Source: Heterodontus francisci | Lineage: Eukaryota | Direction of reading: 5' to 3' | Assembly: GCF_036365525.1 (NCBI RefSeq) | Contig: NW_027140453.1 | Span: 868,001 to 932,000 of the forward strand | Length of the DNA stretch: 64,000 nt | Part shown: one piece after another, positions 15,445-40,040 of the stretch | Numbering within the stretch: position 1 is the stretch's first letter | How the letters are laid out: each line of letters opens with the position of its first letter | Position numbers and translations under genes: made by a program | The notes under the pieces: model-generated | What the model was told of the DNA's origin: nothing | Databases searched by the model: none | The model's input: only the letters and a program-made list of their open reading frames with translations

Positions 15445-15895
15445 TCCCCATTTGTCAGTGTTTTACCCCCTTCTGATGTTGTTCAATTTGTTAGTGTTTT
15501 TCCCCTGCTGAAGTTGTTGCTGTATTTATTGTCTTTTTTTCACTGAAGTTGTTGTTGAACTTGTTGGTGTCTTTGCCCAGCTGAAGTTGCTGCTGCATTG
15601 CTTGATGTACTTCCCTAAAGTTGTTGGTGAAGTTGTAGGTGTTTCCCCTGCTGACGTTGTGAGAATATTAGTTGTTTTCTTTACTCCCCCCTTCCCCTAA
15701 AGTTGCAGGATTTGTTGGTGATTGCTTCCTGAAGTTGTTGTTGAATTTGTTGGTGTAATTTTCCTGTTGAAGTTGTTGTGATGTTTGTTTTTAATTCTCC
15801 TGAAGAAGTTGTTGAATTTGTTGGTGTCTTTCTGCTCCTGAAGTTGTTGTATTTGTTGTTCTTTTTCCCCCTCCTGAAGTTGTTGTTGAATTCCC
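15445..15895 (-). repeat. Degenerate GTT-rich tandem repeat (reverse copy of the 20.1-21.1 kb AAC-rich array)
   Basis: Units like CTGAAGTTGTTGTTGAATTTGTTGGTGT. Confidence 0.85.
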
Positions 15896-18377: not shown

Positions 18378-18416
18378 AGTTTTTGCCCTGTTTCCTTCCA
18401 TTCTAGTTACACTGTG
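18378..18416 (-). promoter_or_regulatory. 23-RSS of V pseudogene
   Basis: CACAGTG + 23 nt + GCAAAAACT. Confidence 0.9.
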
Positions 18417-18705
18417 TGTATCCTTGTGAGCCCTGCAGTAGTAAGCGCTGTTGTCTTGGACCCAGGAGCTTTTCAACGACAGAGGGAAAGTGTTGGCCTG
18501 AGTCTCGTGCTGGGTTTCAATCCATTTCCTGTTGTTAGATGCAGAAAGTGCACTCCATCTGATCCATCCCAGGCAGTCACCAATCTGCAAGTACCAGTCC
18601 AAACAACACTCAGTCATGTTGCCCTGCCCAATTCTGCTGTGGAACGTGGTTTCCTCCCCAGGAACCAGGGCGTTGGCCGCCGGGGACTGGAGAACCATCT
18701 AACAT
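18417..18705 (-). pseudogene. Antigen-receptor V pseudogene of a divergent family
   Basis: VLQSPA..PGEETTFHSRI (first Cys codon is AGC)..WYLQ..DNSAYYC followed by a 23-RSS; in-frame TAG just before the ORF; no leader found. Confidence 0.8.
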
Positions 18706-19181
18706 CTGACAATATTCTTCATACAGGATGGCAGATCAATGGGGAGAGAACGATAGAGGGTTACAGGGAGGGACAGAGGCAAAAGCAGAGGAGACAAATT
18801 ATTTTCCTCCAGTCACGCTGCTACCTTCACGCTTATATTTGCTCCATAGGTTAAGCCCAATTATAAAGCAGATTTTTGACAGTGGTAAAACTATAAAAGC
18901 GCCAAACTCGGAAGGATGAATGCAAACCAGCTCAGTCTGCATCTGAGCAAAAGGAAAATAGGTAATGTTTAAGGATGATACTCTGTTAAAATAATCCTAA
19001 CTGCTGTTCGGATCAAGCAGCAGTGAATTATTTCAGTTTGGTTGACGAGGTGATTACATATAACAATGCATAAAGTAACTATTACGAACATTAATTTCAT
19101 CAACAATGGTACCAAATGGGGACAGTGGTGTTTCCTGTCTTAAAGGTGGAAAGCAGGAATATGGAAAGGGAAGGAATTGTG

Positions 19182-19434
19182 ACCAGTATCTCCGAATAAC
19201 ACTTCAGTATCTTCTGTCAGCAGATCTTTAACTACTTTGAGATTCTTTTCAGAGGAGGAGGCTCGTTGTAAGCAGTGTGATCAAACCGCCCCTGCTGCTG
19301 TGGAAACTGCAGACAGGGCGAGTAATCACTGCCTCTGGCGTTGTATTCCTTACGGAGCACCCTCTGACCAGATCATACCAACAAAAGCTTAGCAGGGATC
19401 AGCGCCGTACAGGCAGAGGCCATCCCAGGGATCC
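19182..19434 (-). pseudogene. Highly degraded V-exon relic
   Basis: Acceptor TTTTCCCTATGTAG; IPAKLLLV*SGQRV..GSDYSPCLQFPQQQG; later NLKVVKDLLTEDTEVLF (FR3-like); no valid RSS. Confidence 0.4.
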
Positions 19435-20094
19435 CTACATAGGGAAAAATAAAGAGAAAATGAGAGAGAGAGAGAACAGCTGAGAGGGAGCAAGGGAGAG
19501 GTAGAGTGAGGCAGAGACAGAGAGAAAGAGAGACAGACTGATCGACAAAGCCACTGAGAGATGGAATGATTCAGGCAAAATAAGTTAGACAGAGAGAGAG
19601 AGAGAGAATGAGAGACATAGTGACAGATAGAGAGAATGAAGCAGTAGGAGGTGTAGAGACAGACAAGGAGAGACAGAGCGACACAGAGACAGGAAATGAG
19701 AGGAGATTGTCAGAATTAATGAGAGAGAGAGAGAGAAAAATGAGTGAGTGTGTGTGAGAGAGAAATAGAGACAGACAGCAAGAGTAAGTGAGAAAATGAG
19801 AGGCGAGAAAGAGAGGGGAAGGATAGAAGACAGTGAGATAAAGAGAGAGAATGAGAATGTGTGTGTGTGTGAGAGACAGAAAGAGCAACAGAGCAGAGAG
19901 GAACTGAGAGAAGGAAAGACAGACAGGGATAAAGAAAGAGAATGAGAGTGAGTGTGTGTGAGAGAGGAAAGATAACAAGGGCAACAGAGACAAAGAAACA
20001 GACATGAAGAGAGAGAAAGGAAACAATTTTACAGAACAATGAAAACCATGTTTTTTTAATCAATATTGGTGAAGTCTGATGGGTTTCCTGGTCC

Positions 20095-20118
20095 TAGCTC
20101 GCCCTCTGCTGTCCCCCT
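20095..20118 (-). promoter_or_regulatory. CTCF-like motif downstream of the minus-strand TRBV
   Basis: Minus strand GGGACAGCAGAGGGCGAGC, homologous to 33681-33712 and 36190-36220. Confidence 0.55.
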
Positions 20119-20124
20119 GGAGGA

Positions 20125-21150
20125 GAAAACCCCCAAAAAGACAAAAACAACTGCAGCAGAAAAAAACACTCACAAATTCAACAACAACCTCAACAGGGAA
20201 AACGCCAACAAATTCAACAACAACTTTAACAGAAGAAAAACACCAACAAATTCAACGACAACCTCAACAGGAAAAACACCAACAAATTCAACAACAACCT
20301 CAACAGGAAAAACGCCAACAAATTCAATAACAACTTCAGCAGGAGAAAAACACCAACAAAGTCAACAACAACTTCATCAGGAGAAAAACACCAACAAAGT
20401 CAACAACAACTTCAACAGGAGAAAAACACCAACAAATTCAACAACTTCAACAGGAAAAACACCAACAAATTCAACAACATCTTCAGGAGAAAAACACCAA
20501 CAAATTCAATAACAACGTCAGCAGGTGGAAAAAACACCAATACATTTAACAACAACTTCAACAGGAAAAACAACAATAAATTCAACAACAACATCGAGAA
20601 AAAACACCAATAGATTCAACAACAACTTTATCAGGAGGCAAACAGGAAAAAATACAAAAATAACTGAAGCAGAAAAATAACCCACTAACAAGCTCAGCAA
20701 TAACTTCAACAGGAGAAATATAAAATACTAATAAAATCAACAACAACTTCAACAGGAGAAAAACACCAACAAAGTCTACAACAACTTTAGCAGGAGAAAA
20801 ACACCAACAAAGTCAACAACAACCTCAAGAGGAAAAGCACCAACAAATTCAACAACAAGAAAAACACCAACAAATTCAACAGCAACTTCAGCAGGAGAAA
20901 ACAACAACAAATTCAATAACAACCTCAACAGGGAAAACGCCATCAAATTCAACAACAACTTCAACAGGAAAAACTCCAACAAAGTCAACAACAACTTCAG
21001 CAGGAGAAAAACACCAACAATTTCAACAACAACCTCAGCAGGAAAAACAGCAACAAATGCAACAACAACTTCAACAGGAAAAACACCAACAAAGTCAACA
21101 ACAACTTCAGCAGGAGAAAAAAACCAACAAATTCAACAACAACTTCAGCA
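20125..21150 (+). repeat. AAC-rich degenerate tandem array, ~36-39-bp unit (CAACAACAACTTCAACAGGAAAAACACCAACAAATT)
   Basis: Directly visible; reverse copies at 15445-15895 and 22965-23570. Confidence 0.92.
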
Positions 21151-21269
21151 GGATCTGCACATTGTCTGTTCGTGGGATCTTGCCTTGTAGAAACTGGCTG
21201 CCACACTTCCTGCATTACAGCAGTGGCTGTACTTCGAAACAGTAGCAAAGAGTATGGGAATAGCAAAAC

Positions 21270-22170
21270 ATATGAGATTAGCAAAACTGTGAGATCTTGG
21301 GCTTCATAAATAGAGGCACTGCCTACAAAATATGAGAAGTTATGCTGAATCTTTATAAAGCTCTAGTTAGGCCACAACTGGACAATTGCATCCAGTTCTG
21401 CGCACCACACTTTAGGAAGGAGGTGAGTTTCCTTGAGAGGGTGTAGAGGAGATTGACCAATATGATTCCGGGGATAGGGGATTTTAATTACAAGGTTAGG
21501 TTGGAAAACCTGGAGAAAATGAGATTGAGTGGAGACCTGATAGAGGTGTACAAGATTGTGACAGGTTTAGATGAGGATCACAAAGAAAAGCAGCTCCTCA
21601 CCCAGGAGTCAGTTCCCCAGCTCCACTGACTAGTCCCACAGTGTTGGTGTTCCTGCTCCTCGCTCCAGCTGCAGGGAAGTTACAGCACAGAAATAGATCA
21701 TTCGGCCAGACACGTCCATGCAGGCCTTTTTGGTCCACACGAACGTCGTTCCACGCCCACTTCATCTCGCCACAAGCCACATCTCCTTCTGTTCCTCTCT
21801 CCCTCATGTCCTATGCAGCTTCCCCACCCCACCCCCCAGCTTAAATACATCTTGCCTATTCCCCTCAGCCTGTGGTAATGAGTTCCACATTCTCCCCACT
21901 CTCTGGGTGAAGATGTTTCTCCCGAATTCCCAATTGGATTTATTGGTGACTGTCTTATATTGATGACCCCTCCCCCTTTTTCTGGACTCACCCGCAAATG
22001 GAAAAAATCTTCTCTACATTTATCTGATCAAAACCACTTTCATAATCTTAAAGAGCTCTATCAGGTCACTCCTCAGCCTTCTCTTTTTTGGAGAAAAGAG
22101 CCCCAGTCTGTTCAGTCTTTTCCTGATCATTATCACCTCTCAGTTCTGATATCATCCTTGAACATCTTTC
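21270..22170. mobile_element. Two CR1 fragments in opposite orientation (21270-21595 plus; 21680-22170 minus)
   Basis: CR1 C-terminal coding and 3' UTR motifs. Confidence 0.75.
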
Positions 22171-22269
22171 TGTGTCTTCTTCATGTCGAAGACATGTTCA
22201 CACTGCAATAGATAAACCAAACAGGATACAGAGCTGCGGGCTTTTATCTGAAACAGGTATTTCTGTTGG

Positions 22270-22308
22270 TGTTTTTGTTGAACTGCTCCGTCTCTCTGAG
22301 TCACTGTG
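22270..22308 (-). promoter_or_regulatory. 23-RSS
   Basis: CACAGTG + 23 nt + ACAAAAACA. Confidence 0.95.
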
Positions 22309-22801
22309 CTGACTCCAGGCACAGAAATACAGGGCCGAATGATTCTCCCGCAGGCTGGTGGACTCCAGGTTGAAGTGGGAGCCAGTCGGTCGCTTGGCAT
22401 TGAAACCCTCCACAGTTCCCTCTGAGTTCACACTTGGTGTAGCTGCGGAGTAAAACATCAGCCGCGGCTCCTTCCCCGGGTCCTGTCTGTACCAGAACAT
22501 GGAACCGCTGCTCTCACCCTCCACACGGCACTCCAGTCCCACTCCCTCCCCAGGAAATCTGGAGACGGCGGTGGGAGCCTGGCGGACCCTCACTGAGATT
22601 GCGCCTGGGGGAAGAGACCGGGAGAGAAGAAGGTCAGTGAACAGGGACAATCTGGGATGTGAAGAATGAAACAAGGAGAGAAAGATAGAGAGAAAGAAAA
22701 TAAGAAAGACAGCTGTTAACACAAATAATGGGGGTGTGGGGTGGTGGTGAGAAAGATCCCTTACTTTGAAATAAGACCATGAGACTCAGTAACAGATACA
22801 T
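22309..22801 (-). CDS. TRBV: TCR beta V gene segment (CAWS family, TRBV30-like); leader 22801-22765, V exon 22604-22309; apparently functional
   Basis: Leader MYLLLSLMVLFQ ending A|GTAAG; acceptor CCCCCAG; VRQAPT..LECRVEG..MFWYRQ..NHSALYFCAWS; intact 23-RSS. Confidence 0.93.
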
Positions 22802-23100
22802 CTTTCACTGGAAGCTGAACCTGCAATTGGGAAATCAGTGGAAAGAAGAGAGTTGAGTCTTGTGAGAAGCCACATGAAGACTCAAGCAAGTGATTGAGGT
22901 TTGCCCAACACCTCCCTCCCTGATGGGGAACCCACGCCCCTCTCTCTACCATTGGCTGCCAGTAGTTGCTGTTGCATTTGTTGGTATCATTCTGCTGCTG
23001 AAGTTGTTGTTGTATTTGTTGTTGTATTTGCTGGTGTTTTTCTCCGACTGAGGTTGTTGGATTTGTTGTTGCTTGAATCTCCTTCTGAGGTAGTTGTTGT

Positions 23101-23425
23101 AATAAAAGCAAAATACTGCGGATGCTGGAAATCTGAAATAAAAACAAGAAATGCTGGAACCACTCAGCAGGTCTGGCAGCATCTGTGAAAAGAGAAGCAG
23201 GATTAAAGTTTCGGGTCAGTGACCCTTCATCGGAACTGACAAATATTAGAAAAGTCACAGGTTATAAGCAAGTGACGTGGGGGTGGGGCTAGAGGTAACA
23301 AAGGAGGTCTAGATTGGACCAGGCCACATAGCTGACCAAAAGGGCACGGAGCAAAGGCAAACAATATGTTAATGGTGTGTTGAAAGACAAAGCATGAGTA
23401 CAGATTAGGTGTTAATACACTGGTG
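23101..23425. mobile_element. Truncated retroelement end (possibly Penelope-like) inserted in the GTT-rich repeat with a 14-bp target duplication
   Basis: GAGGTAGTTGTTGT at 23087-23100 and 23426-23439; a related end AAAATACTGC.GATGCTGG recurs near 56600; family is from recall. Confidence 0.7.
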
Positions 23426-24392
23426 GAGGTAGTTGTTGTTTTTGTTGGTGTTTTCCCCGCTGAGGTTTTAGTTGTACTTGGTTCCTTCCCTGCTTAAGTT
23501 GTTGTTCAATTTGGTTTTTGCATGTTGAGGTTGTTGTTGTATTTTTTGGAGTTTTTTTTCCCCTGCTGAGTTTATTTTCTCTTTTTCAATTCATTCATGA
23601 GATTTTGGTTGAGGCCAGCATTTATTGTCCACCCCTAATCATCTAATTGAGAAGGTGGTGCTGAGCTGCCTTCTTGAACCGCTGCAGTCACGTGGGGTAG
23701 GTAAACCCACAGTGCTGTTAGGAAGGGAGTTTCAGGATTTTGACCCAGTGACAGTGAAGAAACTGTCTTGGCCCCAAAACAAGGCAGCAGGTTGACGGGT
23801 CTTATTGGGTCATAGTGTCATGCAGGTCAAATCCAGGCCATTCAGCCCATCGATCCTGGCCTGGCAGCTCGAAAGAGCGACCTCCTCCCATCTTTCTTCA
23901 TCTTACCCTATCAACAGATTCTTCTATTCCTTTCTCACTCATGTATTTATTCAGCTCCCCTTTAACTGCATCGTCTCTATTCGACCTCAACCCATTCCAT
24001 TTGGTCTGTAATTCCACATTCTCACCGCTCCCTGGGTTAAAGAACCTCCTCCTGAATTCCCAATTGGATTTATTAAGGACTACCTTAAATTTATGATCCC
24101 TGGTTTCATCTTCCCTGTCCAATTACTCCCACTCCCTGTTCTTTCTGAATGACCCTGCACTTGATCTTGCAGCTTGTCTGCCTCCTTCCCTACATTCCAA
24201 CACTTCAAAATGTATTTGACTGGTTGAGGCTTGAGTGAAGCAGAGAGCTGTCGGGCCGAATGGCGCGGATGTATGCATCAACTTCCATCTAGTTCTGGGC
24301 CACAAGCGCCAACACGAGTCGAGTAGGAGAATATAACTGATGACTGAAACAGGTTCAGGGTCTGACACTGAAACGCCTGCAGAATCGGTGCT

Positions 24393-24425
24393 TGCAGTTG
24401 CACCTGGAGCCACTAGGTGCCAGTG
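24393..24425 (+). promoter_or_regulatory. CTCF-like site with upstream TGCAGT module, between the divergent V genes
   Basis: TGCAGTTGCACCTGGAGCCACTAGGTGCCAGTG; one mismatch to CCACTAGGTGGCAG. Confidence 0.5.
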
Positions 24426-24842
24426 TTACTCCACTGCAGCCGCTGCCCAGAACATGCTCAGACAGAGTGAGCTTTACCCACAGCAGCTCCACAGGTCAAC
24501 TTGGCTGCTTCTGAAATGTTTCACTTCTCAACTATTTGACAGACACACACAAAAAAAAGCAGTTAGACTTCATCATGTTTGGTCTTTAATATTGACCAGA
24601 GGCCCCCTGGATTCCCATGAGGCCTCCTTAGCTCAGCCCCGGAAATGACCTGTCAACATGTCAACATGTGGGAACCAATGAACCATAAGGAAGTTGCCCC
24701 TCCCCCCGCCTCCCCCCCAATGGGAACATGAAACACTGGGGAGGAGGGGACAGTAAATGTCACTCAGAACATTGAGATATTCTGCAATAAAACTGCTCAG
24801 TGATTTCACACAATGAACACATGGATCTGTCTCCCTCCAGAG

Positions 24843-25738
24843 ATGACTGTGTCTCACCTCTGGGTTGTGTTGCTGGTGTTAAGGGGTAAGGTGGAACTCG
24901 ACTGAGAGATGCCAGTCATCCTCACTGCTCTTTGCCTGTGTGACCCCATTGGGGGTTTACCCCCTTACTAGGCACCGTCACTGTGATTGTTAATTTAGCT
25001 GCTCTCTTTCTCGTTTTGTATTCCTTTCTCTCTCCCCCTCTCTCTTTCTCTCTGTCTAACGATATATGTACCTCTATGTCTGTCCTTCCCACTCTCCTTT
25101 TCTTTCTGTCTCTCTTGCTCTCTCTCCCTGTCCTCTTAGTTCCTTCATGTATGTTGCCCATGCATAGATTGTTGCTGTGTTTCTCCCTCTGTGTGTTTGC
25201 TTCCCCCTCTCTCTCTCTGTCTCTGCTTCTCTCCTTTTCTCTCACTCTTTTTCATTCTCTCTCTCTCTCTCTGTGCATCTCCCCGTCTCCCACCTCTCCC
25301 TTCTTACATAGGAACACGGGACATTTAGAACACACAGGAGGTCATTCAGCCCATCGTGCCTCTCCCCTCTTTGTGGCCGATGTCAATTTAAACATTGTCC
25401 CTGGGTTTATCTTTCTCTCTCTCTCTCTCTGTTTTACAGATGTGGGGGCCGTGCTGATACAACAGACTCCCGCTTCCCTATCCCATTCCCCAGGTTCTCC
25501 AGTCAGTATCCAGTGTATTTACCCTGAAGCAACAGCTGGCTCCTATTTCTACTGGTACCGGTGGCATCTGGACCGTGAGCCCGAGAACCTTTTCTATTCC
25601 AACGTCCCCGGAACGGTCATTCCCTCCGGTGAGGTGGACGGTTTCACCGCCAGGAGACCCGACAACACCCATTTTTACCTGGAGTCCTCCAGCCTGTGGG
25701 CGAATCAATCAGCCGTGTATTACTGTGCCTGGAGTCAG
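24843..25738 (+). CDS. TRBV: TCR beta V gene segment (CAWS type); leader 24843-24885, V exon 25440-25738
   Basis: Leader MTVSHLWVVLLVLR ending G|GTAAG; acceptor TTTTACAG; IQQTP..IQC..FYWYRW..NQSAVYYCAWS. Confidence 0.9.
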
Positions 25739-25777
25739 CACAGTGACTCAGAAAGGCGCCGGAGTTCAGCAAATACT
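25739..25777 (+). promoter_or_regulatory. 23-RSS with a degenerate nonamer
   Basis: CACAGTG + 23 nt + GCAAATACT. Confidence 0.9.
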
Positions 25778-25809
25778 CTAAAGGGGGAGGAAAGCACTTG
25801 TGGGAGATA

Positions 25810-26175
25810 AACCTGTCTGTCTATCTCAGTGTCTTTCTGTCTCTCGGACTATCTGCGAGTTTCTGTGTCTCTTTGTGCGTCTCTGCATCTATCTATCTGT
25901 CTATCTGTCTATCGATCTGTATCTATCTATGTCTATCTATCTTTCCATCTATCTACGTGTCTATCAATCTATCTATAAATCTATCTGTATCTATCTATCT
26001 TTGTGTTTACCTGTCTGTCTGTCTGTCTCTCTGTCTCTATCTATCTATCTGTATCTATCAATCCATCTGTATCTATCTATCGATCCATCTGTATCTATCT
26101 ATTTATCGATCTCGCTGTCCATTTTTGGTTATTTGCACCATTTATCTATCTATTTATCTCGATCATATATATATA
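25810..26175. repeat. Degenerate (TATC)n microsatellite
   Basis: Directly visible. Confidence 0.9.
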
Positions 26176-26955
26176 TTTGTCATCTCTGTCTCTCACAGTT
26201 TCATCTTCTTGCTCTCCTTCGACTCAGAGTACATCAATACATTATGAATTATTAAAAATGCTGCAGCAATGTGCTCAGATCCTTCTCGTTAAGGCAGCCT
26301 CTACCTGTAAAGAACAGATTCAGAGGTGGGGTAAATGGGCTCATGGTCCTGTTGAATGAGCTGTCGGTGGTATGTGACAAGAGTTACACATAGCTCCCTA
26401 TTGTACATGTCCACGATGATTCATACAATGCAAAAGTGAGACACCTCCCCAGATAGGTCTCTCACTGGAACACCTGCCTCCTGACGGCGGTTTGAGCATC
26501 TGTTTAAAACAGTTAACCCACTTCTTCATGACACTGTCGCTTTTCAAAGTATCTAACATTTCACCCCAATGTAAAACACAGCCCTTGAATTGTCGTTTAG
26601 CACAGGGGAAATAACTTTTGATCTGCCGAATACAAACAAGCAACTTGATGTGTCTTATATATTTATAGAATCATACAGCAGAGCCGAGGCCATTCAGCCC
26701 ATCGAGCCTGGCCCAGCTGTTCGAAAGAGCTACCCTATACAACACCAATCAGACACAACCAACGAGAGCCAGATACAGACGGGAAGCAGTTCCTTATTCA
26801 AGCTCCTTCCGACCAGTGGGTGTTATTATTCTGTCATACCCAGAAGTGAGGGGTCAGAAGGAAACCCTGTTTCCAGTGCTGTCATTTCCGCTCTCTGCTT
26901 TATCTTCAGCCGCCTGATATTGGTTCATGAACAGATTCAGCCCCCAGTCTGCAGG

Positions 26956-27771
26956 ATGCAGTTAGTCAAACTCTTCCTAATCGTCTGTTCTCTTCTTCCA
27001 TGTAGGTATTCATTGTTCATAAAGATACCTGTGCTAAATACTTGCTGTGTTTTCATTCACTACTAACTTCTATCAAACTAGATTGATAAAACATCATTGC
27101 AGTCGATTTTCTGTCATTTCTTAAACTACATACTTTACTTTCACTGTAAATAATATTTACTTAATGAAATTTTTGACTGAATGAAAGTTACTTATATATT
27201 CGTGACGCTACTACAGCTATCTTTAACCGATAAGTTTGCCCTAATTCTGGGTTAATTTGTCTCTCTCATGTCACTTGCTACATTATTTTTCAGTCACTAT
27301 ATCTATCTGTTTATTATCTATATATCTACCAATATATCATTTAACTATATATTGTCTGCCTATATAGTTATCTAGTATTATCTAATTATCTATTTTGATA
27401 GTTATAGTTGGTTATCATATGTCACAATATGTTCTAAACTTTTTTAAACTATTCTCCTTATTTCTCAAGGCAAAACTCTAGCAGAGGTGATACACCAGTG
27501 GCCAACTCTGGTGGTGGTGAAGAGAGGTGAACCAGCAGAATTAAACTGTTACCAGAATGACAGTAGTAAGAGCGTTATGCTGTGGTATCGGCAGTATGCC
27601 GGGCAGGGGCTCACCCTAATGGGCTATTCTTACACTGGAAGCTCACCCACGTACGAAGGAAAATTTGAAGAGGAGGTGAAGATTATAAGGCCCGAGGACA
27701 AACGATGCAGCCTGAGGGTCCTCAAGGTTAAGGCTGTGGATGCGGCGGTGTATTACTGTGCAGCCAGGGAG
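26956..27771 (+). CDS. TRBV: TCR beta V gene segment; leader 26956-27001, V exon 27470-27771; apparently functional
   Basis: Leader MQLVKLFLIVCSLLP ending T|GTAGGT; acceptor TTCTCAAG; VIHQWP..LNCYQND..MLWYRQ..GLTLMGYSY..DAAVYYCAAR. Confidence 0.92.
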
Positions 27772-27810
27772 CACAGCGCTGCAGACTGCCTTAGTGCCAG
27801 TACAAAAACC
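27772..27810 (+). promoter_or_regulatory. 23-RSS
   Basis: CACAGCG + 23 nt + ACAAAAACC. Confidence 0.95.
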
Positions 27811-29034
27811 AACAGGGTGAACAACACAACTGACTGACATACAGGAGCAGTGACAATGGTTAATGTCTCTCCCTGCCTCACCGGCCGTTTTCCAAGCTGG
27901 TGATTCCCGGATTCCTGAACCTTCATCATGGGCTGAATGACAGGGAATAGCACAAGGTCCGAGGAACAGAGAGAGAAGGAAAGAGAGAGATGTGTCTCAG
28001 ATCCCCTGCAAAATTTCAAAGTCCTCGTCTACACCGTTTAATTTCTGGCACTGAGTATGTTAAAACTGAGTCACAGTCTCTGTCCTATACTTGATTAATT
28101 AAAAGGTTAATTAATGATGTAAATAAGACAGATAGTTTACATCACCATTGTGAAGCGATGGATAGAGTATCAATCATCTACAAGGTACAAGTCAGGAGTG
28201 TGATGGAATACTCTCCATTTGCCTGGATGATGCAGCTCCAACAACACTCAGGAAGCTCAACACGATCCAGGACATAGCAGCCCGGTTGTTCAGTACCCCA
28301 CCTACCACCTTCAACACTCACTCCCTTCACCACAGTGGCAGCAGTGTATACCATCTACAAGATGCACTGCAGCAAAGCATCGAGTGTCCTTAGACAGCAC
28401 CTTCCAAGCCCACCAACTCTACCACCAGAAGGACAAGGGCAGTAGACTCATGGGAACACCACCACCTGCAAGTTCCCCTCCAAGCAACACACCATCCTGA
28501 CTTGGAACTATATTGCCGTTTCTTCACTGTCACTGGGTCAAAATCCTGGAACTCCCTTCCTAACAGCACTGTGGGTGTACCTCCCCCACATGGACTGCAG
28601 TGTTGCAAAAAGGCAGCTCATCACCACCTTCTCAAGGGCAAATAATTGCTGGTCTTGCAAAAGAAATTCACGTCCCATGAACGAATAAGAAAAAGAAATT
28701 ATTTCAGCTCTTCCACGACTTCAAGACGCCCCAAGACAGTTAACAGCCAATTAAGAACTGGACAATGATGGTCAGATCCTCTGCTATCTCTTCTCTTGCT
28801 TTGATTTTTTTTTATTCATTCTGGGGACCAGGGTCCCTCTGAGAAGGCCAGCAGTTATTCAACATCGCTAATTGCCCTGGAGAAGGTGTCTGCTGCCTTG
28901 TAGATAACTGAAGGGCTTGCTGGGTCATTTCGGAGAGCAGTGTACTTAAAATACGGAATTCAATTGGTGTACAGCACCATTCCATAGGCAGCATAGACAG
29001 ACAGATAGCTGGCGAGGAAGGTAGACAGACAGAC

Positions 29035-29069
<35 letters not shown>

Positions 29070-29329
29070 CGATCGATCTATCTCCTGGCTTCGGTGTGAA
29101 CACGAGCTCAGAAAGTGGCGAGGGGGGAGACAAGGGGAGAGAAGAAAGAAGGAAAAGGTAGCATAAGGAAGCAAGCAAAAGAATGGGGGAACAACTTAAA
29201 GGTAGGGGCGGGGATCATTGCCTTGAGATAACTTCCTCTTCTGACGATCCGATCTGCCTACACCTCATCTCTCTCCCTCCCTTAAAACCCAGAGTAACCA
29301 GCAGAAAGTCTCTCAGATCCACCGCAAAC

Positions 29330-30055
29330 ATGCCTTTCAGTTTCATCCTCTTTGCTATTTCCCTTCTGGCGCTGAGTAGGTTAAAATTCTGTCCCAATCA
29401 CTCTTCTACATTTGATCAACTGAAAGGGATGATTAATGATCTCAATAAAACTGAGCGGCGGTGACTTGTGAAATCAGTAATCGATTATTTCATATCAGAC
29501 AGTGAACTCATTCATCTGTCCCCTAGTTCGGGAAGACAAGTGTTATTAATATGATGTTAACTCTTTAATGTTTGCACCCACTTGCAAGCTTGTGGATTCC
29601 ACAATTCTATTTTACAGTTGTAAAGATCCAGGTGCTTGTAGGAAATTAGGACACAGACTGAATTTCCGTCGTTAATTTGGTGCAACACCGACGTCCATCG
29701 TCGCAATTGTAACTCCATCGATACTAGTTCATTCCCTCTAATTTCTCTTTCTAGGTGTTTGCCGGGGTGATGTGATACATCAATGGCCTCAGTCACTGGC
29801 TGTTAAACAACGAGGACCCGTGGAAATGAACTGACTGCAGAAAGGAACAGTTCGCAATATCATGTACTGGTATCGTCAGTCCCCCATTCCTCTCAATGGG
29901 CTCTGTTTACCTAGGCAGTGAACCTCAGTATGAAGAGGGTTTTAAGAGCGGGTTTGTTATTACCAGGACTCTGGACAATAAGAAATCCACTCTGACGATC
30001 GAGAGTGTGAACGCCACGGACGAGGCGTTGTATTTCTGTGCAGCTGGTGATGGGA
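29330..30055 (+). pseudogene. TRBV: TCR beta V pseudogene; leader 29330-29375, V exon 29755-30055
   Basis: Leader MPFSFILFAISLLAL; DVIHQWPQ..EMN* (TGA at 29832-29834 in the first Cys position); frameshifting deletion after WYRQSP; DEALYFCAAG. Confidence 0.9.
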
Positions 30056-30094
30056 CACAGCGGTTCAGAGTCATTGGCCGCCTTGACAAAAACC
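30056..30094 (+). promoter_or_regulatory. 23-RSS, intact
   Basis: CACAGCG + 23 nt + ACAAAAACC. Confidence 0.95.
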
Positions 30095-30294
30095 CTCACA
30101 CGTCTCCCTTTAAACGGGTGCATTTAACCCAGCATTCGGTGAAGAGCAGCCCTGGCTGATCGGTTGCGGATCTGCATCTGTTCAGTGCCCGTTCGAGTGG
30201 CAGAACGCCCATGTTCTAACTCCCCACAACCTCCAGACAGACAACACACACTCTCTGTGCCCACACCTGTCTAATGGTTCATAGAACGGCTCTT

Positions 30295-31440
30295 CAACCC
30301 GTACCTCGGTTAGACCACACCTGGAGCACTGTGCACAATTCTCAGCTCTATATACTTTGTTTAGACGACACCTGAAGTGCTGAGGACAATGCTGAGGGTG
30401 ACCTGATAGAGGTGTTCAAGATTATGAAGGAATATGACAGGGCAGAGAAAATGCCTGCACTTGTAGGGAAGGTCATGAATACATCATACTCACTAATAAC
30501 TCCAAGAAATGAATTTACACAGAGTGGTAAGAATGTGGAATTCACTAGCACACAGAAATAAATGATGTGTATAACCAGATATATGTAAATGGATGCTGGA
30601 TAAAAACATTAGGGAGCAGGAAATAGCACCTCATACTGATAGGGCTGGGTGAAGACATTGTTTATGTTCTTTCATCAGATGTGGGAATAAAATGTGAGAA
30701 TAAGCTAACCAGCAATATAAACACAGATGGTAGGAGCTTTTACATAAAAAGTAAGAGAGTAGCTAAAGTTGACGTTGGTCCCTTAGAGGGAAAGACAGGA
30801 AAAATCATCATGAGGAATGGGGAAATAGCAGGGGAATTGAACTAATATTTTGTGCCTGTCTTCACAGTCGAAGACACAAGTTCCATCCCAGAAATATGCA
30901 GTTATCTGGGGCCTAAAAAGCGGGAGGAAATTAAGGATATTCATATCAATTGAGAAAAAGTTTTGGAGAAACTTGAGGGATTAAAATCTGACAAGTCCCC
31001 TGGAACAGATGGATTATATACCAGAGTTCTAAAAGAGATAGCTGCAGAGAGAGTGGGGGCGCTGGTTATGATTTTACAGAATTCCTTAGATTCAGGAATG
31101 GTCCCATCGGATTGAAAGCTGACAAATGTTACACGGCTTTTCAAGAAAAGAGGCAGCGAGAAATCTCAGGATAAGGGATCAATCATTCCGGACTGAGATG
31201 AGGAGAAATGACTTCACTCAAAGGGTTGTGAAACTTTGGAATTCTCTATCCCAGAGTGTTGTGGATGTTCCTTCATTGAATACATTTAAGGCTGGGAGTT
31301 TTGATCCCTCAGGAAATAAAGGGATATGGGGAGCAGGCAGGAAAGTGGAATTGAAACCCAAGATCAGCCATTATTGTATTGAATGACGGAGTAGGCTCGA
31401 TGGGATATATGCTCTACACCTGCTCCTATTTCTTGTGTTC
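30295..31440 (+). mobile_element. CR1 fragments
   Basis: DKSPGTDGLYTRVLKEIA; FTQRVVKLWNSL; internal deletion. Confidence 0.8.
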
Positions 31441-32344
31441 TGTGGGTCTGGAGTCACATGCAGGCCAGACCAGGTAGGTACGGCGGATTTCCTTCCCTAA
31501 AAGACATGAGTGAGCCAGCTAGGTGTCAGGGCGCCTTAACTGAGACTAGCATTCAATTGCAGATTTTCCAATGAAATAATTGTATTTATTCATTAATTGA
31601 ATTTAAATTCCACCATCTGACCTCATGGGATTCGAACGCATGTCCCCTGGGGATTCACCCCAGCCTCTGGTTTGCTCGCACAACTACACTGCCATCTGCT
31701 CCAGCCTAGTCTGGAACATGGTCCCATCGGGCCGAATAGCCTGAATCTGTGCTGCAAATTCTATCTAATTCGATGTCACCAGCATCACCAGCCGAAGCAA
31801 TGTATTAAAAATGGGAAGACGGAGCAATTTCAAAGCATGTCTTCATAATGCCTATTTTATCAATTGCACTGCGCAAATCTCAGGTGCCTGTAGTTACACA
31901 TTACAGCCACGAGATGGGGATGGAGCTCTACCGCAGCCTGAGTCCCACTTGCTTCTGCAAAGACTGAGCGAACAATACAGCAGTGACTTGACCCATCTAC
32001 CTAATAGTCAATTCCACTAACTGTGAAACAGATTCAAATCATAACCATTCCACACAAAATAGACAACTGGATTTTCCCAAGTCTGCTCGTTCATAGTGAA
32101 TGGTTTGAGCAACACTTGTGAGATACCAAAACAGATGATCTGAAGGAAGTAAAGAGGGGAAGCAAAGTCAGAAAACAGTGAAAGAAAAATGGAGAAGGAA
32201 TAATTTTATATAAAATACGCACATTCAGGGATGTGCACATCACTGACAAGGTCAGCATTCATTACCTATGCCGAATTGCCCTGAACTGAATGACTTGCTA
32301 GCCCATTTCAGAGGCAGTTAACAGTGAACTACATTGTTATCAGG

Positions 32345-33300
32345 AGATACATTTTGGCAGAAGGGAGACAGAGAGGAAATACAGACTTAATGACACAGGC
32401 CTAAAGAGTGTTCAAGGACAGAGGGACCTGGGGTTATTGTGCATAGATCTTTGAAGGTGGCAGGACATATGGAGAAAGAGGTTCACAAAGCTTATGGGAT
32501 CTTGGGATTCATGAATAGAGGTATAAAGTACAAAAGCAGGGAGGTTATGCTCAACATATATGAGGTTCTGGTTAGGCCCCAACTTGAGTACTGAGCTCGG
32601 TTCTGGTCACCACACTTTCGGAAGGATGTAGGGTCCTTGAGAGGGTGCAGAGGAGATTTACTGGAATGGTTCCAGGGATGAGAGAGTTTAACTGCATGGT
32701 TAGTTTGGTGAAGCTGGGGTTGTTCTCCTTGGAGCAAAGGAAATTGAGGGGAGATTTGACAGAAGTGTACAAAATGACGAGAGGTTTAGATAAAGTAGAC
32801 AAAGAAAAACTGTTCCCATTAGCTGATTGTACAAAGACTAGGGGACGAAGAGGATAGGAATAAAACAGAGAATAAAAGCTGAGAAAAACTGAAATCCGAT
32901 AGGGAGTTGAGGAGAATTCTTTACCCAAAATACAGAATTCAATGCCAGCAGAAACTGCTAAGACAAAGGCAGGAACAGGAAGGGGCCATTCAGGCCCTCA
33001 ATTCTGTACCACCATTCAATGAGACCATGGCTGATCTGTGATCTAACTCCATATTCCCGCCTTTGCCCCATATCCCTTAATATTTATTTTGGATCACAAA
33101 AACCTATCCATCTCCGATTTCAAATTAACAATTGATTCAGCATCAATTTCCCTTAGCAGAAGAGAGTTCAAACCTCTCCACCCATTGTGTGTAAAAGTGT
33201 CTCCTAATTTCACTCCTGAAAGGTCTGGCTCTAATTTTTAGTCTTTGCCTCTTAGTCCTAGATTCCCAAACCAGCGGTAATAGTTTCTCTCTATCTACTC
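32345..33300. mobile_element. CR1 fragments (32345-32930 plus; 32960-33300 minus) abutting the truncated V
   Basis: QRRFTGMVPGM..LGLFSLEQRKLRGDL; reverse 3' UTR. Confidence 0.85.
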
Positions 33301-33319
33301 CCAAAGACTAAATAAATAC

Positions 33320-33427
33320 AACTTCAAACTGGAGACCTCCAGCCTGCAGGAGAATCACTCGGCCGTGTATTTCTGTGCCTGGAGAGATCACAGTGACTCA
33401 GAGAGATGGAGCAGTTCAACAAAAACA
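33320..33427 (+). pseudogene. TRBV: 3' fragment of a CAW-family TRBV with intact 23-RSS (33389-33427)
   Basis: FKLETSSLQENHSAVYFCAWRD then CACAGTG + 23 nt + ACAAAAACA; 5' part missing. Confidence 0.92.
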
Positions 33428-34540
33428 TCAAAGGCAGCAGGAAACACCTGTTTCAGATAAAATTGCTCGGTACCTTGACCGACTGTTCCCTGATGCAGAG
33501 TGAAAGTGTTTATTACAATAAAAAGAGTTGAGTTATGATTGTAGTGACACACTAGATTTACAGGTACTGCCGAGGGTGCAATGAACGATTAATAAAGATG
33601 TCACGAGATTTCAGAATGTAACTATCAGGAATCAATGACAATAATCTGGGTATTCTTACACTGACCCTGTGTTTACCTTCTCCACAGGGACAGCAGAGAG
33701 GGATCCAGGACCATAGACCGGACAATGGCTTTGAGAAGGATTTAGTGAGAAAACTAATAGAGCAGGAGATCATGTAGATCCAGCTTGATATACATCAACA
33801 GGACAAGGACACCCACTCCTTTAGAGAGAGACAGAGAGTGTATGTGTGTGAAAGAGAGAGCGAGATCCAGTGAGAGAGAGGAAAAACGACAGGTAGAGTT
33901 AAAGAGACTGAGACAGAGAGGGAGACGGAGATAGAGGCAAAGACAGTGAGACAGCAAGAGACACATAATGAGAGAGAGAGAGAGACACTGAGAGAGAGAC
34001 GGAGAGAAAGAGAGACTGAGCTAAAGAGCCTGCGACAGATAGGAAGTTAGATCAAGAGAGAGACAGAGACAGGGAAATAAACTGAAGAGATAACAAGAGT
34101 AAGAGAGAGGGAGAGTCAGAGAGAAGGAGGGAATGGGAGACATAACCTTAGATACATGAGGAGACAGAGAGTCAGAGAGAAAAAGTGAGCGAAGATAGAC
34201 TGAGATAGAATGGGAGAGAGAGTCTGAGAAAGGAAGAGAGTGGGAGACATAAACCTAGACACATGAGGGGAGAGAGAGAGAGAGACAGAGAGAGAGTGCA
34301 AGAGAGCGGAAGGTAAACTGAGATAGAGATAGATAGAGAGAGAGAGAGAGAAGCAGAATGGCAGCCAATTCAATTCTGATTTGTTGAACTGGGTGAATGG
34401 GCGTCTCCAACATTGTATCACATCCTAATGCTCTTCATGTTCCTCCCAATGATTTGTAAAGAGTGGATTTGGACCGTTACAAGACTCGAAGCTCCTGATC
34501 TCACTCCTGTGTCTATTAAGAGAACAGGTTATAGTGAAAG

Positions 34541-34993
34541 ATGTATCAGTTACTGGGTCTGATAATCCTGTTTCATTGTGAGTGAGTGTGAAGTGCAAAA
34601 ACTATTGTTAATAACTTTCCTCTCTTCTCCCTGTCTCCCTTTCATTCCCAGAAGTTTCCTGTTTACTGATCTGCTCTTCTCTCCATCTCTCTCCCAGATG
34701 TGAACTCACAGACTATCCACCAGACTCCCGCCGCTGTCTCCAGATTGCGTGGAGAGGCAGTGGAACTGAGGTGCACAGTGGAGGGCAGCAGTACTGCTAG
34801 AATGTACTGGTACAGACAATATCCGGGGAAGGAGCCGCTGTTGATGGTTTACTCCACTACTGCTAACTATGTGGATCCAGAGGGGATGGTGGGCGGTTTC
34901 ACCGCCGAGAGACCAACTGACTCCCAGTTCAACCTTGAGTCCTCCAGCCTGCGGGAGAATCACTCGGCCGTGTATTTCTGTGCCTGGAGTCCT
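34541..34993 (+). CDS. TRBV: TCR beta V gene segment (TRBV30-like); leader 34541-34577, V exon 34698-34993; apparently functional
   Basis: Leader MYQLLGLIILFH ending T|GTGAGT; acceptor CTCCCAG; SQTIHQTP..LRCTVEG..MYWYRQ..NHSAVYFCAWS. Confidence 0.94.
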
Positions 34994-35032
34994 CACAGTG
35001 ACTCAGAGAGATGGAGCAGTTCAACAAAAACC
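34994..35032 (+). promoter_or_regulatory. 23-RSS, perfect consensus
   Basis: CACAGTG + 23 nt + ACAAAAACC. Confidence 0.96.
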
Positions 35033-35309
35033 CCAAAGGCAACAGAAAACACCTGTTTGAGATAAACCCAGACGGTGCTGCATCCTGCTGGCTGTTTTTG
35101 TCATTGGGAACATGTTTTTCACAAGAAGACAGGGCGGATTTAGATAGAAAGAGATTAGATTTGGAGACAGTGGAAAATTGCGAGATAGAATTTCGAGGAA
35201 TGATACCGATACTGAGAAGTTATAGCGATCAAAGAAGTCTGAACCAGAAAAGAGAAGACTGAAGGATAAACCTTTAGTGTTCTTAGAGAGATTCTGAAAG
35301 GGTTTAATG

Positions 35310-35504
35310 NNNNNNNNNNNNNNNNNNNNNNNNNNNNNNNNNNNNNNNNNNNNNNNNNNNNNNNNNNNNNNNNNNNNNNNNNNNNNNNNNNNNNNNNNNN
35401 NNNNNNNNNNNNNNNNNNNNNNNNNNNNNNNNNNNNNNNNNNNNNNNNNNNNNNNNNNNNNNNNNNNNNNNNNNNNNNNNNNNNNNNNNNNNAGACGTGT
35501 AGGG

Positions 35505-35564
<60 letters not shown>

Positions 35565-36060
35565 CGATAGATAAATAGACAGACAGACAGACATATAGAC
35601 AGGTANNNNNNNNNNNNNNNNNNNNNNNNNNNNNNNNNNNNNNNNNNNNNNNNNNNNNNNNNNNNNNNNNNNNNNNNNNNNNNNNNNNNNNNNNNNNNNN
35701 NNNNNNNNNNNNNNNNNNNNNNNNNNNNNNNNNNNNNNNNNNNNNNNNAGNNNNNNNNNNNNNNNNNNNNNNNNNNNNNNNNNNNNNNNNNNNNNNNNNN
35801 NNNNNNNNNNNNNNNNNNNNNNNNNNNNNNNNNNNNNNNNNNNNNNNNNNNNNNNNNNNNNNNNNNNNNNNNNNNNNNNNNNNNNNNNNNNNNNNNNNNN
35901 NNNNNNNNNNNNNNNNNNNNNNNNNNNNNNNNNNNNNNNNNNNNNNNNNNNNNNNNNNNNNNNNNNNNNNNNNNNNNNNNNNNNNNNNNNNNNNNNNNNN
36001 NNNNNNNNNNNNNNNNNNNNNNNNNNNNNNNNNNNNNNNNNNNNNNNNNNNNNNNNNNNN
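35310..36060. other. Assembly gaps around a (GATA)n tract; further gaps at 40220-40367 and 62343-62479
   Basis: Runs of N. Confidence 0.99.
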
Positions 36061-36189
36061 AGATAACTAGATGGATAAATGGGTGGATAGATAAGTAGAT
36101 AGGTAGGTAGATCAATCGGAACAGAGATAGTTAAGTAAATAGATATACAGACACTGTTGTGGTTTATTCACTGACAGTGTTGTCTTTCT

Positions 36190-36220
36190 CCACAGGGACA
36201 GCAGAGGGCGGTGTAGGACC
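36190..36220 (+). promoter_or_regulatory. CTCF-like motif downstream of the last TRBV
   Basis: CCACAGGGACAGCAGAGGGCGGTGTAGGACC. Confidence 0.55.
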
Positions 36221-36896
36221 GTGAAAAGTATCTGATTATTGATGATGTTTCAATAGGGACTTTGAAACGTGTCTATGAACATCTCCTGATAATTAAATAA
36301 CTACATCCCTGTTACAGTCTGGTGAACTGAATACAAGGTACCGCAGATGCTGGATGGTTTAGGTTCTGGGCGCTCTGTCACTATATTGGTGCTCGTTGCA
36401 TTTCTGGGTTATAAATAAATAAGGATGGAAATGTTAATCAGATCAGACAGCCTCTGTGGAGGGAGAAAAAATATTAGCATATCAGGTCGTAGATCTTTCA
36501 ACAGAACTGGAAGGATTTAGAGATCTATTAACTTTTAAGCAGCACAAAGTCAGAGAGACGGGCAATGGGAGAAATGCAAAATAGATTGAATAACAAAACT
36601 GATGCTGGTGCAAGACAAAAGGGATGTTAATGGGTCAAGTAAAGAACAAACGATGGGTCCAGAAGAGGCAGAACTGGCAGAAACACAATCATTACCAACA
36701 AGCCTCTGTCCAAATAAACCGGAGCAGTGGTTATGATCAGAAATTGTTAAACTAGCTGTTGAGTTCAGAAAGCTGTAAAGTGCCCAATTGAAAGATGAGG
36801 TGCTGTTCTTCGAGTTTCTGTTGAGCTTCATTGGAGCAGAGAAGGAGGTCGAGGACAGAGAGGTCAGGGTGGGAGTTTACAGAGTATCTGCACCCC

Positions 36897-39800
36897 GTGC
36901 AGATACTATAATAACAGACCCACACAGTGACTCTCCCTGTGGAGATATTATAATAACAGACCCACTCAGTGAATCTCCCAGTGGAGTCGGTCTGTTATTA
37001 GTGTATCTCCAAAGGGAGAGTCACTGAGTGCGTCTGTTGTTATAGTATCTCCACAAGGAGAGTCACTGAGTTGGTCTGTTATTATAGTATCTCCACAGTG
37101 AGAGTCACTTTGTGGGTCTGTTATTATTGCATCTCCACAGGGAGAGTGAATGATTGTGTCTGTTATTATTGCATCTCCACAGGGAGAGTCACTGTGTCTC
37201 TCTGTAATTATAGTATCTCAACTGGGACATTCATTGAGTGGGTCTGTTCTTATACTATCACCACAGGCAGTGTCAGTGAGTGGATCTGAAATTGCAGTGT
37301 CTCCACAGTGAGAGTCACTGAGTGGGTCTGTTATTATAATATCTCCACAAGGAGGGTCACTGAGTTGGTCTGTTATTATAGTATCTCCTGAGGGTGAGTC
37401 TCTGAGTGCGGCTGTTATTATAGTATCTCCGCAGGGATGGTGAATGATTATGTCTGTTATTATAGTATCTCAAGTGGGAGAGTCAGTAAGTGTCTCTGTT
37501 GTTGTAGTATCTCCACAGGGAGAGTCACTGTGTGAATCTGTTTCTTAGCATCTGCACAGGGGGAGCCACTGAGTGGGTCTGTTTTTGTATTATCTACACA
37601 GGGAGAGTCACTGAGTCTCTCTGGTATTACAGTATCTCCACAGGGAGACTGAATTATTGTGTCTGTTATTATAGAATCTCCACAGGGAGAGTCACTGAGT
37701 TGGTCTGTTATTATAGTATCTCCACAGGGAGTGTTTCTGAGTGGATCTGTTATTAGAGTATCTCCACAGGGAGAGTCACTGAGTGGATCTGTTATTAGAG
37801 TATCTCCACAGGGAGGGTGTATGATTGTGTCTCTGATTATAGTACCTCCTTGCGGAGAGTCATTGAGTGTGTCTGTGTCTGTAGTATCTGCACAGGGCGA
37901 GTCATTGAGTGGGTCTGTAATTATAGTATCTCCACAGGGAGAGTCACTGAGTCGGTCTGTTATTATAGTATCTCCAGTGGGAGAGTCACTGAGTGGGTCT
38001 GTTATTATAGTATCTCCACAGGGAGAGAAACTGAGTGTGTCTGTTATTATAGTATCTCCACAGGGAGAGAAACTGAGTGTGTCTGTTATTATAGTGTCTC
38101 CACAGGGAGAGTCACTGAGTGGGTCTGTTATTATAGTATCTCCACAGGGAGAGTCACTGAGTCGGTCTGTTATTATAGTATCTCCAGTGGGAGAGTCACT
38201 GAGTGGGTCTGTTATTATAGTATCTCCACAGGGAGAGTCACTGAGTGGGTCTGTTATTATAGTATCTCCACAGAGAGAGTCACTGAGTGGGTCTGTTTTT
38301 GTATTATCTACACAGGGAGAGTCACTGAGTGGGTCTGTTATTATAGTATCTCCACAGGGAGAGAAACTGAGTGTGTCTGTTCTTATAGTATCTCCACAGG
38401 GAGAGAAACTGAGTGTGTCTGTTATTATAGTGTCTCCACAGGGAGAGTCACTGAGTGGGTCTGTTATTATAGTATCTCCACAGGGAGAGTCACTGAGTCG
38501 GTCTGTTATTATAGTATCTCCAGTGGGAGAGTCACTGAGTGGGTCTGTTATTATAGTATCTCCACAGGGAGAGTCACTGAGTGGGTCTGTTATTATAGTA
38601 TCTCCACAGGGAGAGAAACTGAGTGTGTCTGTTATTATGGTATCTCCAGTGGGAGTGTCACTGAGTGTCTCTGGTATTACAGTATCTCCACAGGGAGAGT
38701 TAATGATTATGTCTGTTATTGCAGTCTCTGCACAGGGAGAGTCACTGAGTCGGTCAGTTATTATAGTATCTCCACAAGGAGAGTCACTGAGTGGGTCTGT
38801 TGTTGTAGCATGTCCACAGGGAGAGTCACTGAGTGGGTCTGTTGTTGCAGCATGTCCACAGGGAGAGTCACTGAATGGGTCTGTTATTATTGCATCTCCA
38901 CGAGGGGAGTCACTGTGTCGGTCTGCAATTATAGTATCTCCACAAGGAGAGTCACTGAGTGGGTCTGTTATTATTGCATCTCCACGAGGGGAGTCACTGT
39001 GTCGGTCTGCAATTATAGTATCTCCACAGGGAGAGTCACTGATTGGGTCTGTTATTATAGTATCTCCACAGGGAGAGTCACTGAGTGGGTCTGTTATTAT
39101 AGTATCTCCACAGGGAGAGTCACTGAGTGGGTCTGTTATTATTGCATCTCCACGAGGGGAGTCACTGAGTGGGTCTGTTATTATAGTATCTCCACAGGGA
39201 GAGTCACTGAGTGGGTCTGTTATTATAGTATCTCCACAAGGAGAGTCACTGAGTGGGTCTGTTATTATAGTATCTCCACAAGGAGAGTCACTGAGTGGGT
39301 CTGTTATTATAGTATCTCCACAGGGAGAGTCACTGAGTGGGTCTGTTATTATAGTATCTCCACAGGGAGAGTCACTGAGTGGGTCTGTTATTATTGCATC
39401 TCCACGAGGGGAGTCACTGTGTCGGTCTGCAATTATAGTATCTCCACGAGGAGAGTCACTGAGTGGGTCAGTTATTATAGTATCTCCACAGGGAGAGTCA
39501 CTGAGTCGGTCTGTTATTATAGTATCTCCACAAGGAGTGTCACTGAGTTGGTCTGTTATTATCGTATCTCCACAAGGAGAGTCACTGAGTTGCACTGTTA
39601 TTATAGTATCTCCACAAGGAGTGTCACTGAGTTGGTCTGTTATTATCGTATCTCCACAGGGAGAGTTACTGAGTGGGTCTGTAAATATCGTATCTCAACT
39701 GGGACAATCATTGAGTGGGTCTGTTCTTAAACTATCACCACAAGGAGAGTCAGTGAGTAGATCTGAAATTGCAGTATCTCCGCAGGGAGATTCACTGAGT

Positions 39801-40040
39801 GCGTCTGTAATCATAGTATCTCGACAGGGAGAGTCACCGAGTGAGTCTGTTATTATAGTATCTTTAGAGAGAGAGTCTGTGAGTGTGTCTGTTATTATAG
39901 TATCTCCACTGGGAGAGCTACTGAGTGGGTCTGTTATCATAGCATCTCCACAAAGGAGAGTGACTGAGTGGGTCTGTTATTATAGTATCTCCGCAGGGAG
40001 TGTCTCTGTGTGGTTCTCTTATTATTGTATCTCCACCGTG
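36897..40040. repeat. Minisatellite, 42-bp unit GTTATTATAGTATCTCCACAGGGAGAGTCACTGAGTGGGTCT; first two units inverted
   Basis: 14-aa periodicity in the 637-794 aa ORFs on both strands. Confidence 0.97.

Follow-up and report, generated by a model that had tools for sequence, protein, structure and literature searches.

A candidate CTCF-binding island downstream of T-cell receptor beta V segments in the shark Heterodontus francisci

In a cluster of variable (V) gene segments of Heterodontus francisci (assembly GCF_036365525.1, contig NW_027140453.1, positions 868,001 to 932,000; this 64-kb stretch is referred to below as the window), a short motif resembling the binding site of CTCF lies downstream of several segments that end in CAWS or CAWR, which raises the question of whether the motif is a regulatory element that was duplicated and inverted along with its V genes and, if so, in what capacity it would act. 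CTCF control of V gene choice has been documented in mouse and human, and V-associated CTCF sites that follow V families are already known in mammals. An original prediction, made from the DNA letters, had proposed an ancient unit of V gene plus CTCF site, by reference to the CTCF sites that shape RAG scanning in mammalian loci, with a splice acceptor as its alternative. On balance we favour the interpretation that the motif is a CTCF site downstream of the V, that it shared the duplications and the inversion of that V, and that it would serve as a loop anchor resembling that of mouse Trbv1 rather than as a stop for RAG scanning.

A conserved island behind CAWS-type V segments

Seven V-like segments, each with a recombination signal sequence (RSS) of 23-bp spacer (23-RSS), lie in two orientations within 17 kb (18378-35032), with heptamers at 18416 and 22308 on the minus strand and at 25739, 27772, 30056, 33389 and 34994 on the plus strand, by which positions they are named here. 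A 26-bp island, present in three copies at the predicted places and strands (Table 1), stands behind three of the four CAWS-type segments and three of the seven segments overall, always on the strand of the V upstream of it; the pair of V22308 and copy 1 is inverted with respect to the V genes on its right. The motif had been predicted to accompany the CAWS family, and this applies to three of its four members, the intact V25739 and the three non-CAWS segments being without a copy. The nonamer lies 2155 bp from copy 1, 260 bp from copy 2, and 1163 bp from copy 3, although 636 of these last 1163 bp are N. Copy 2 also stands some 850 bp ahead of the V34994 ATG, but a 5' association of the island was rejected, since V22308 and V25739 have no copy on their 5' side.

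Pairwise ungapped identity within the island is 23/26 between copies 1 and 3, 22/26 between copies 1 and 2, and 21/26 between copies 2 and 3, while the six flanking 26-bp blocks compared for each pair are identical at 4-12 of 26 positions, with the exception of the block directly upstream in copies 2 and 3 (17/26). When the masked 3' flanks are aligned, the island reaches scores of 34-53, compared with maxima of 27-32 in shuffles, the match between copies 1 and 2 being marginal (34 vs 32). A pattern written from the copies has exactly three matches in the window at up to three mismatches and none in any of 100 shuffles, which, given that the pattern was derived from the copies themselves, shows uniqueness only. 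A profile of the three copies found no fourth in the window (nhmmer; the next match, E = 0.045, falls within a repeat), no Rfam family matches 19500-37000, and a metagenome scan for the island found nothing. Eleven bases in the 5' half of the CTCF-like core and the six bases after the core are invariant in all three copies, including copy 2 with its broken core. The DNA between V and motif had been described as otherwise unrelated, which has to be qualified on two counts: the 3' flanks of V22308 and V34994 remain alignable for about 200 bp beyond the RSS, and the likeness of copies 2 and 3 extends over 64 bp. The island likely duplicated in concert with its V gene and in one case was inverted along with it, as had been predicted; it is a real, small, and probably regulatory island.

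The scans made here turned up no V, diversity (D), joining (J), or constant (C) segment in the approximately 18 kb to the left or the 29 kb to the right of the V cluster; in the window as a whole, neither a J motif, a D segment, nor a constant domain was found by motif scans and by Pfam on 134 of the 164 open reading frames (ORFs) listed, and none of these 134 carries a C1-set domain. The identity of the locus was approached through the V segments, five of which score as Pfam V-set; the segment at 18416 matched no Pfam family, and the remnant at 33389 is too short for such scoring. Four of the seven segments end in CAWS or CAWR. V34994 has seven longer protein relatives at 54-63% identity, with proteins of Chiloscyllium (four) and Mobula (one) at their head; relatives P0001 and P0007 have a J motif, and P0007, which is TCR-beta-like (TCR, T-cell receptor) in appearance, also has a C1-set constant domain. 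The best single-domain PDB matches of the V are Mel5 TCR beta chains, which we take to use TRBV30. The J motif and constant domain in the relatives, together with the Mel5 matches, led us to take the locus as TCR beta. V22308 and V34994 are 77% identical and differ at 6 of 29 fourfold sites, and V25739 is 60% identical to either. A tree of 14 V domains left 8 of its 11 inner branches open and did not resolve the CAWS lineages, so that it gives no date for the duplication that had been predicted to be "ancient." A metagenome scan for the V protein gave 426 pattern matches, 0 of which were confirmed.

Table 1 Features of the V segment cluster by window position, with bit scores from a matrix approximating JASPAR MA0139.1
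Feature	Position	Strand	Details
Island copy 1	20090..20115	-	CTCF-like core 20097-20115, 13.6 bits, 2 mismatches to published consensus; adjoins 36-bp tandem array
Island copy 2	33649..33712 (26-bp island 33687-33712)	+	preceded by a branch-point-like pentamer and a pyrimidine tract; two high-information positions of the core lost; 2.4 bits, 4 mismatches
Island copy 3	36161..36220 (26-bp island 36195-36220)	+	CTCF-like core 36195-36213, 18.4 bits, 1 mismatch
36-bp tandem array	20121..21153		between V22308 and copy 1; last unit supplies pyrimidine tract of copy 1
V22308, intact CAWS-type V gene	22270..22801	-	leader 22801-22765, V exon 22604-22309, 23-RSS 22308-22270; partner of copy 1
V33389, CAWR V remnant, 5'-truncated	33305..33427	+	23-RSS 33389-33427; partner of copy 2
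V34994, intact CAWS-type V gene	34541..35032	+	leader 34541-34577, V exon 34698-34993, perfect 23-RSS 34994-35032; partner of copy 3
V25739, fourth, more distant CAWS V gene, intact	24843..25777	+	without island copy (control)
CTCF-like site unrelated to the island	24407..24425	+	13.9 bits, with upstream module; in the interval separating the V22308 and V25739 promoters, which stand back to back; no copy of the island

Several other elements were observed around the V segments. An AGATAAA (GATA-like) word lies about 25-35 bp past the RSS nonamer in all four CAWS-type segments (22243-22249 on the minus strand, ~25805-25811, 33455-33461, and 35060-35066), and an exact or near-exact E-box stands before it (CACCTG in two cases, TACCTG and CACTTG in the others); it thus follows the CAWS family better (4/4) than the island does (3/4), and in the contig of a relative (see below) the E-box behind V33389 is kept and the GATA word is not. 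The 36-bp array belongs to a family with inverted copies at 15450-15892 and 20121-21153 and remnants near 23.0 and 23.5 kb, which flank the inverted V genes. A leader-like hydrophobic ORF (36347-36415, plus strand) follows copy 3 at a distance of 130 bp, and no V exon was found between this ORF and the satellite. An odd V-like pseudogene at 18378-18720 on the minus strand ends in YYCRAHKDT and has a good 23-RSS, lacks a Pfam match, and is unlike the other V genes.

CTCF motif strength and conservation

Bit scores were obtained with a count matrix approximating JASPAR MA0139.1. On this matrix, copy 3 scores 18.4 bits (p 3e-7 per position, rank 2 in the window) and copy 1 scores 13.6 bits (p 7e-6, rank 7), and the core match fails in copy 2 (2.4 bits). 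The proposed CTCF-like identity is therefore borne out for copies 3 and 1 and not for copy 2, and the further expectation that the best matches accompany the intact genes agrees with the 2.4-bit copy standing behind the truncated V. Two sites of at least 18 bits were observed, against 0 in each of 60 blockwise dinucleotide shuffles, and nine of at least 12 bits, against a mean of 2.7 and a maximum of 8 in 60 shuffles. Compared with the genome-wide consensus printed in PMC6746451, copies 1, 2, and 3 have 2, 4, and 1 mismatches, respectively, and the window contains 14 sites with at most two mismatches and three with at most one. Core positions 1-16 are identical in copies 1 and 3, whose differences are confined to the low-information positions 17-19, and copy 2 is changed at positions 13 and 15. 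A CpG is kept in copies 1 and 3, in a window whose CpG observed/expected ratio is 0.30. The CTCF motif is reported to be identical in lamprey, chicken, and mammals (PMC5504073), and borders of topologically associating domains in skate are marked by oriented CTCF motifs (PMC10115646). Judged by these matches, copies 1 and 3 are likely core-only candidate CTCF binding sites located 3' of one TCR-beta V subfamily.

It is very unlikely, in our view, that the island is a neutral remnant of duplicated flank that repeats happened to spare and that its motif match is due to chance. Such a remnant could have stayed alignable without selection at the fourfold divergence of V22308 and V34994 given above, and with nine sites of at least 12 bits against a shuffle mean of 2.7, some matches of the strength of copy 1 are chance. 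The edges of the island are sharp, however, which makes neutral survival unlikely: identity falls from 21-23/26 to chance level directly beside it, the same 26-bp stretch survives in all three flanks, and the chance of a 13.6-bit match in a given 60-bp island is of the order of 0.001-0.01 (calculated by hand). Selection may instead have kept the 26 bp while repeats replaced the flanks.

A number of observations nonetheless weigh against CTCF binding as the function conserved in the island. Two intact segments, V25739 and V27772, lack a copy; three sites within one mismatch of the consensus are also reached by 5 of 100 shuffles; and all three copies carry A instead of the first conserved core C. 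The upstream CTCF module is absent at 12-13 nt in copies 1 and 3, and none of the three copies has it, whereas it is present at four other sites in the window (24407, 51002, 51054, and 51107). This module is an optional second part of the motif, and CTCF binding does not require it. Conservation also exceeds what CTCF would need: all copies share six unchanged bases on the 3' side of the core, copies 2 and 3 in addition share about 35 bp upstream, and these parts are kept in copy 2 although two key bases of its core are gone. That copies 1 and 3 show no change at high-information positions carries no significance alone (3 changes in 26 columns; ~0.14 by hand), and in Hox clusters motif scans alone did not predict CTCF sites well (PMC5504073).

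Some of these observations would be accommodated if the island were an element for another factor, or a composite of a CTCF half with a second factor on the invariant 3' bases, for example part of a V-gene enhancer or a transcription stop. The invariance of 11 bases in the 5' half of the core and six following bases, even in the copy with a broken core, is what such an element would predict, as is the non-consensus A kept throughout; the two copies behind intact genes nevertheless match CTCF well, no other factor can be named, and we consider this explanation improbable.

Two further groups of CTCF-like sites were observed in the window. The site at 24407-24425, a two-part site about 420 bp before the V25739 ATG, could serve this V, which lacks the island. 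At 50894-51125, just 3' of a 7tm_1 receptor ORF (~49795-50697), a perfect minus-strand core (22.7 bits) is followed by three plus-strand sites with the upstream module, in a divergent arrangement like that of a domain border; the minus-strand site of this cluster is convergent with copy 3, 14.7 kb away.

Splice-acceptor signals and remnant origins

The alternative raised in the original prediction, in which a conserved non-coding exon begins at the island, with a 3' splice acceptor used by germline V transcripts, and the resemblance to a CTCF site is incidental, is one that we regard as unlikely, although its signals are present in two copies. Copies 2 and 3 have a branch-point-like pentamer, 12-13 pyrimidines of 17, and CAG/G, a combination found at 30 of ~126,000 strand positions in the window, and copy 2 keeps it despite its broken CTCF core. 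Copy 1 has no branch-like pentamer and has lost the shared AG, with another AG 2 nt upstream; its pyrimidine tract is the last unit of the 36-bp array, so that its acceptor-like appearance is partly borrowed. As a coding terminal exon the island was rejected, since the 2-nt shift puts the TAG shared by copies 1 and 3 in different phases, and no such peptide was seen by eye in the Chiloscyllium and Mobula gene models P0002-P0006.

Splicing was examined in contigs placed on 33250-35300, the region of copy 2, from three sequencing runs (X1, X2, and X3) of one sample, none of them on record as RNA, with shares of 0.05-0.15; contigs drop rare forms and may include DNA, and the results are drawn from 17 of the 109 loose ends, 40 of the 115 differences, and 24 of the 397 pieces. 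Among the contigs listed for X3, none spans the core of copy 2. The sample looks like a relative, about 90% alike in non-coding DNA. A leader-V joint from 34577 to 34698 (GT..AG) was seen in its contigs, and spliced molecules are therefore present in the sample. The main contigs, in contrast, cross the AG of copy 2 unspliced (X1 records 1 and 2, 33414-33706 and 33677-33849; X2 record 10, unbroken over 33414-33809), and none of the four joints listed from this sample's contigs has its end at 33688, the base that directly follows the AG. This base is the exact start of two minor X1 contigs, as an acceptor would predict, but the leftover depth in the 33688 bin equals 38 bases of the contig starting at 33677, for which reason a fork or bubble opening at 33718 would account for them better than a junction. 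Acceptor signals are thus present in copies 2 and 3, and the copy that the relative's contigs cover, copy 2, is bridged unspliced in the main contigs. The same contigs place a copy-2-like island behind a CAWS-type RSS in a second organism, with no gap in the copy-2 core among the differences listed and with up to four substitutions compatible with the record 1 counts.

Two origins in other elements were considered together and appear highly improbable, namely that the island is the decayed 23-RSS of a lost V duplicate (CACAGGG resembles a heptamer, and the next 23 bases are conserved) or a piece of some repeat, for example of the 42-bp satellite beside copy 3. Copies 2 and 3 have a heptamer that deviates at one base, 23 bases separate it from the end of the island, and copy 1 has six of nine nonamer bases at the right place; the likeness to a CAWS RSS is, however, not significant against 287 other CACAG windows (p 0.07-0.9), the nonamer matches (3-6/9) are not conserved among copies, and copy 1 lacks CAC. 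The satellite (36984-40036) has 12 bases in common with copies 2 and 3 and reaches only E 0.1-0.9 with the island profile, and few contigs cover copy 2, in contrast to the repeat at 33250-33318. The satellite itself comprises 73 copies and also occurs inverted at 36893-36986. As a D segment the island was rejected because no 12-RSS lies upstream.

Loop anchoring in comparison with known receptor loci

If the island is a CTCF site, the distance from the RSS bears on the kind of site it may be. The RSS-associated CTCF sites of mouse and human Igh, which are separated from the nonamer by 17-19 bp and whose occurrence tracks V families and functional genes (PMC6746451), resemble the island in standing 3' of the V in the V's orientation, in being shared within families, in being kept at functional and typically lacking at non-functional genes, and in being conserved above their surroundings. 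The island differs from them in lying 260-2155 bp away instead of at a fixed 17-19 bp, and it has three mismatches (counted by hand) to the mVH-CTCF consensus, above the limit of two used in PMC6746451. The predicted analogy with RAG scanning is accordingly a poor fit, all the more so as the mouse Tcrb V elements are loop anchors for orientation-independent synapsis (PMC10772921). Losing the CTCF-binding element (CBE) downstream of mouse Trbv1 nearly removes loops and lowers Trbv1 recombination, and Trbv1 joins in either RSS orientation, so scanning is not the sole mode (PMC10772921); the mouse Tcrb V region has 18 CTCF sites, only two of which are near an RSS (PMC5859386, Table 2).

The candidate sites share with the Trbv1 CBE and the 18 V-beta CBEs a TCR-beta locus, a CTCF motif downstream of a V, an RSS distance that is not fixed, and an expected loop-anchor role (PMC10772921, PMC5859386), and they adjoin what are taken to be TCR-beta V segments, with V-set domain and 23-RSS. 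Given distances of 260-2155 bp against the 17-19 bp of the Igh type, a Trbv1-type anchor is, by this analogy, the role in which the candidate sites most likely work, the defining distance of the Igh type being absent. The mouse V-beta CBEs are shown to be bound and all point towards D-J, in contrast to the shark candidates, which are known from their sequence, include one inverted unit, and are paralogous copies that moved with their V. The mouse element near Trbv31 (CBE3) lies between enhancer and V, unlike the island, which is 3' of its V. The TRBV30/Trbv31-like V clade, which in amniotes lies in inverted orientation 3' of the constant gene, resembles the segments described here in its CAWS end, in the Mel5 beta chains as best single-domain PDB matches, and in inversion, and differs from them in that the shark has four family members in a cluster of mixed orientation with no C gene in 64 kb (PMC11754216).

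Under the favoured interpretation as loop anchors, CTCF may bind copies 3 and 1, copy 2 presumably having decayed, in this single case, along with its truncated V. If mouse Trbv1 is taken as the analogue, cohesin would be stalled by bound CTCF a short way beyond the V, and the loops so anchored would bring the V near the D-J centre in thymocytes; bound CTCF may also shield the V from the DNA rich in repeats that follows. The two candidate sites, copies 1 and 3, point apart, and therefore at most one of them can be convergent with a single, one-sided D-J centre; the second might be a weaker, orientation-tolerant anchor, a local barrier, or a slowly decaying site. The lack of a D, J, or C in the window means that orientation towards D-J cannot be judged, which also weighs against the loop-anchor interpretation.

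A broader proposal, which we hold to be doubtful, is that in cartilaginous fish the V and its downstream CTCF site form a duplication cassette, that CTCF-anchored folding of TCR beta would be as old as jawed vertebrates, and that the inverted cassette, by keeping a working site that points the opposite way, would be a natural experiment for orientation-tolerant V-beta joining by loop anchoring and diffusion and not by linear RAG scanning. No report of V-associated CTCF sites in an antigen-receptor locus of a cartilaginous fish was found in a literature search that was thin on subscription journals, and the main text of an article on elasmobranch receptor loci does not mention CTCF (PMC12227049). 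To a specialist the finding would be expected rather than surprising. If the candidate sites are bound, they would form a small test set, comprising a strong site with an intact V, an inverted site with an intact V, a broken site with a truncated V, and an intact V without a site, and V-associated loop anchors would extend as far back as the most ancient surviving lineage that has V(D)J recombination.

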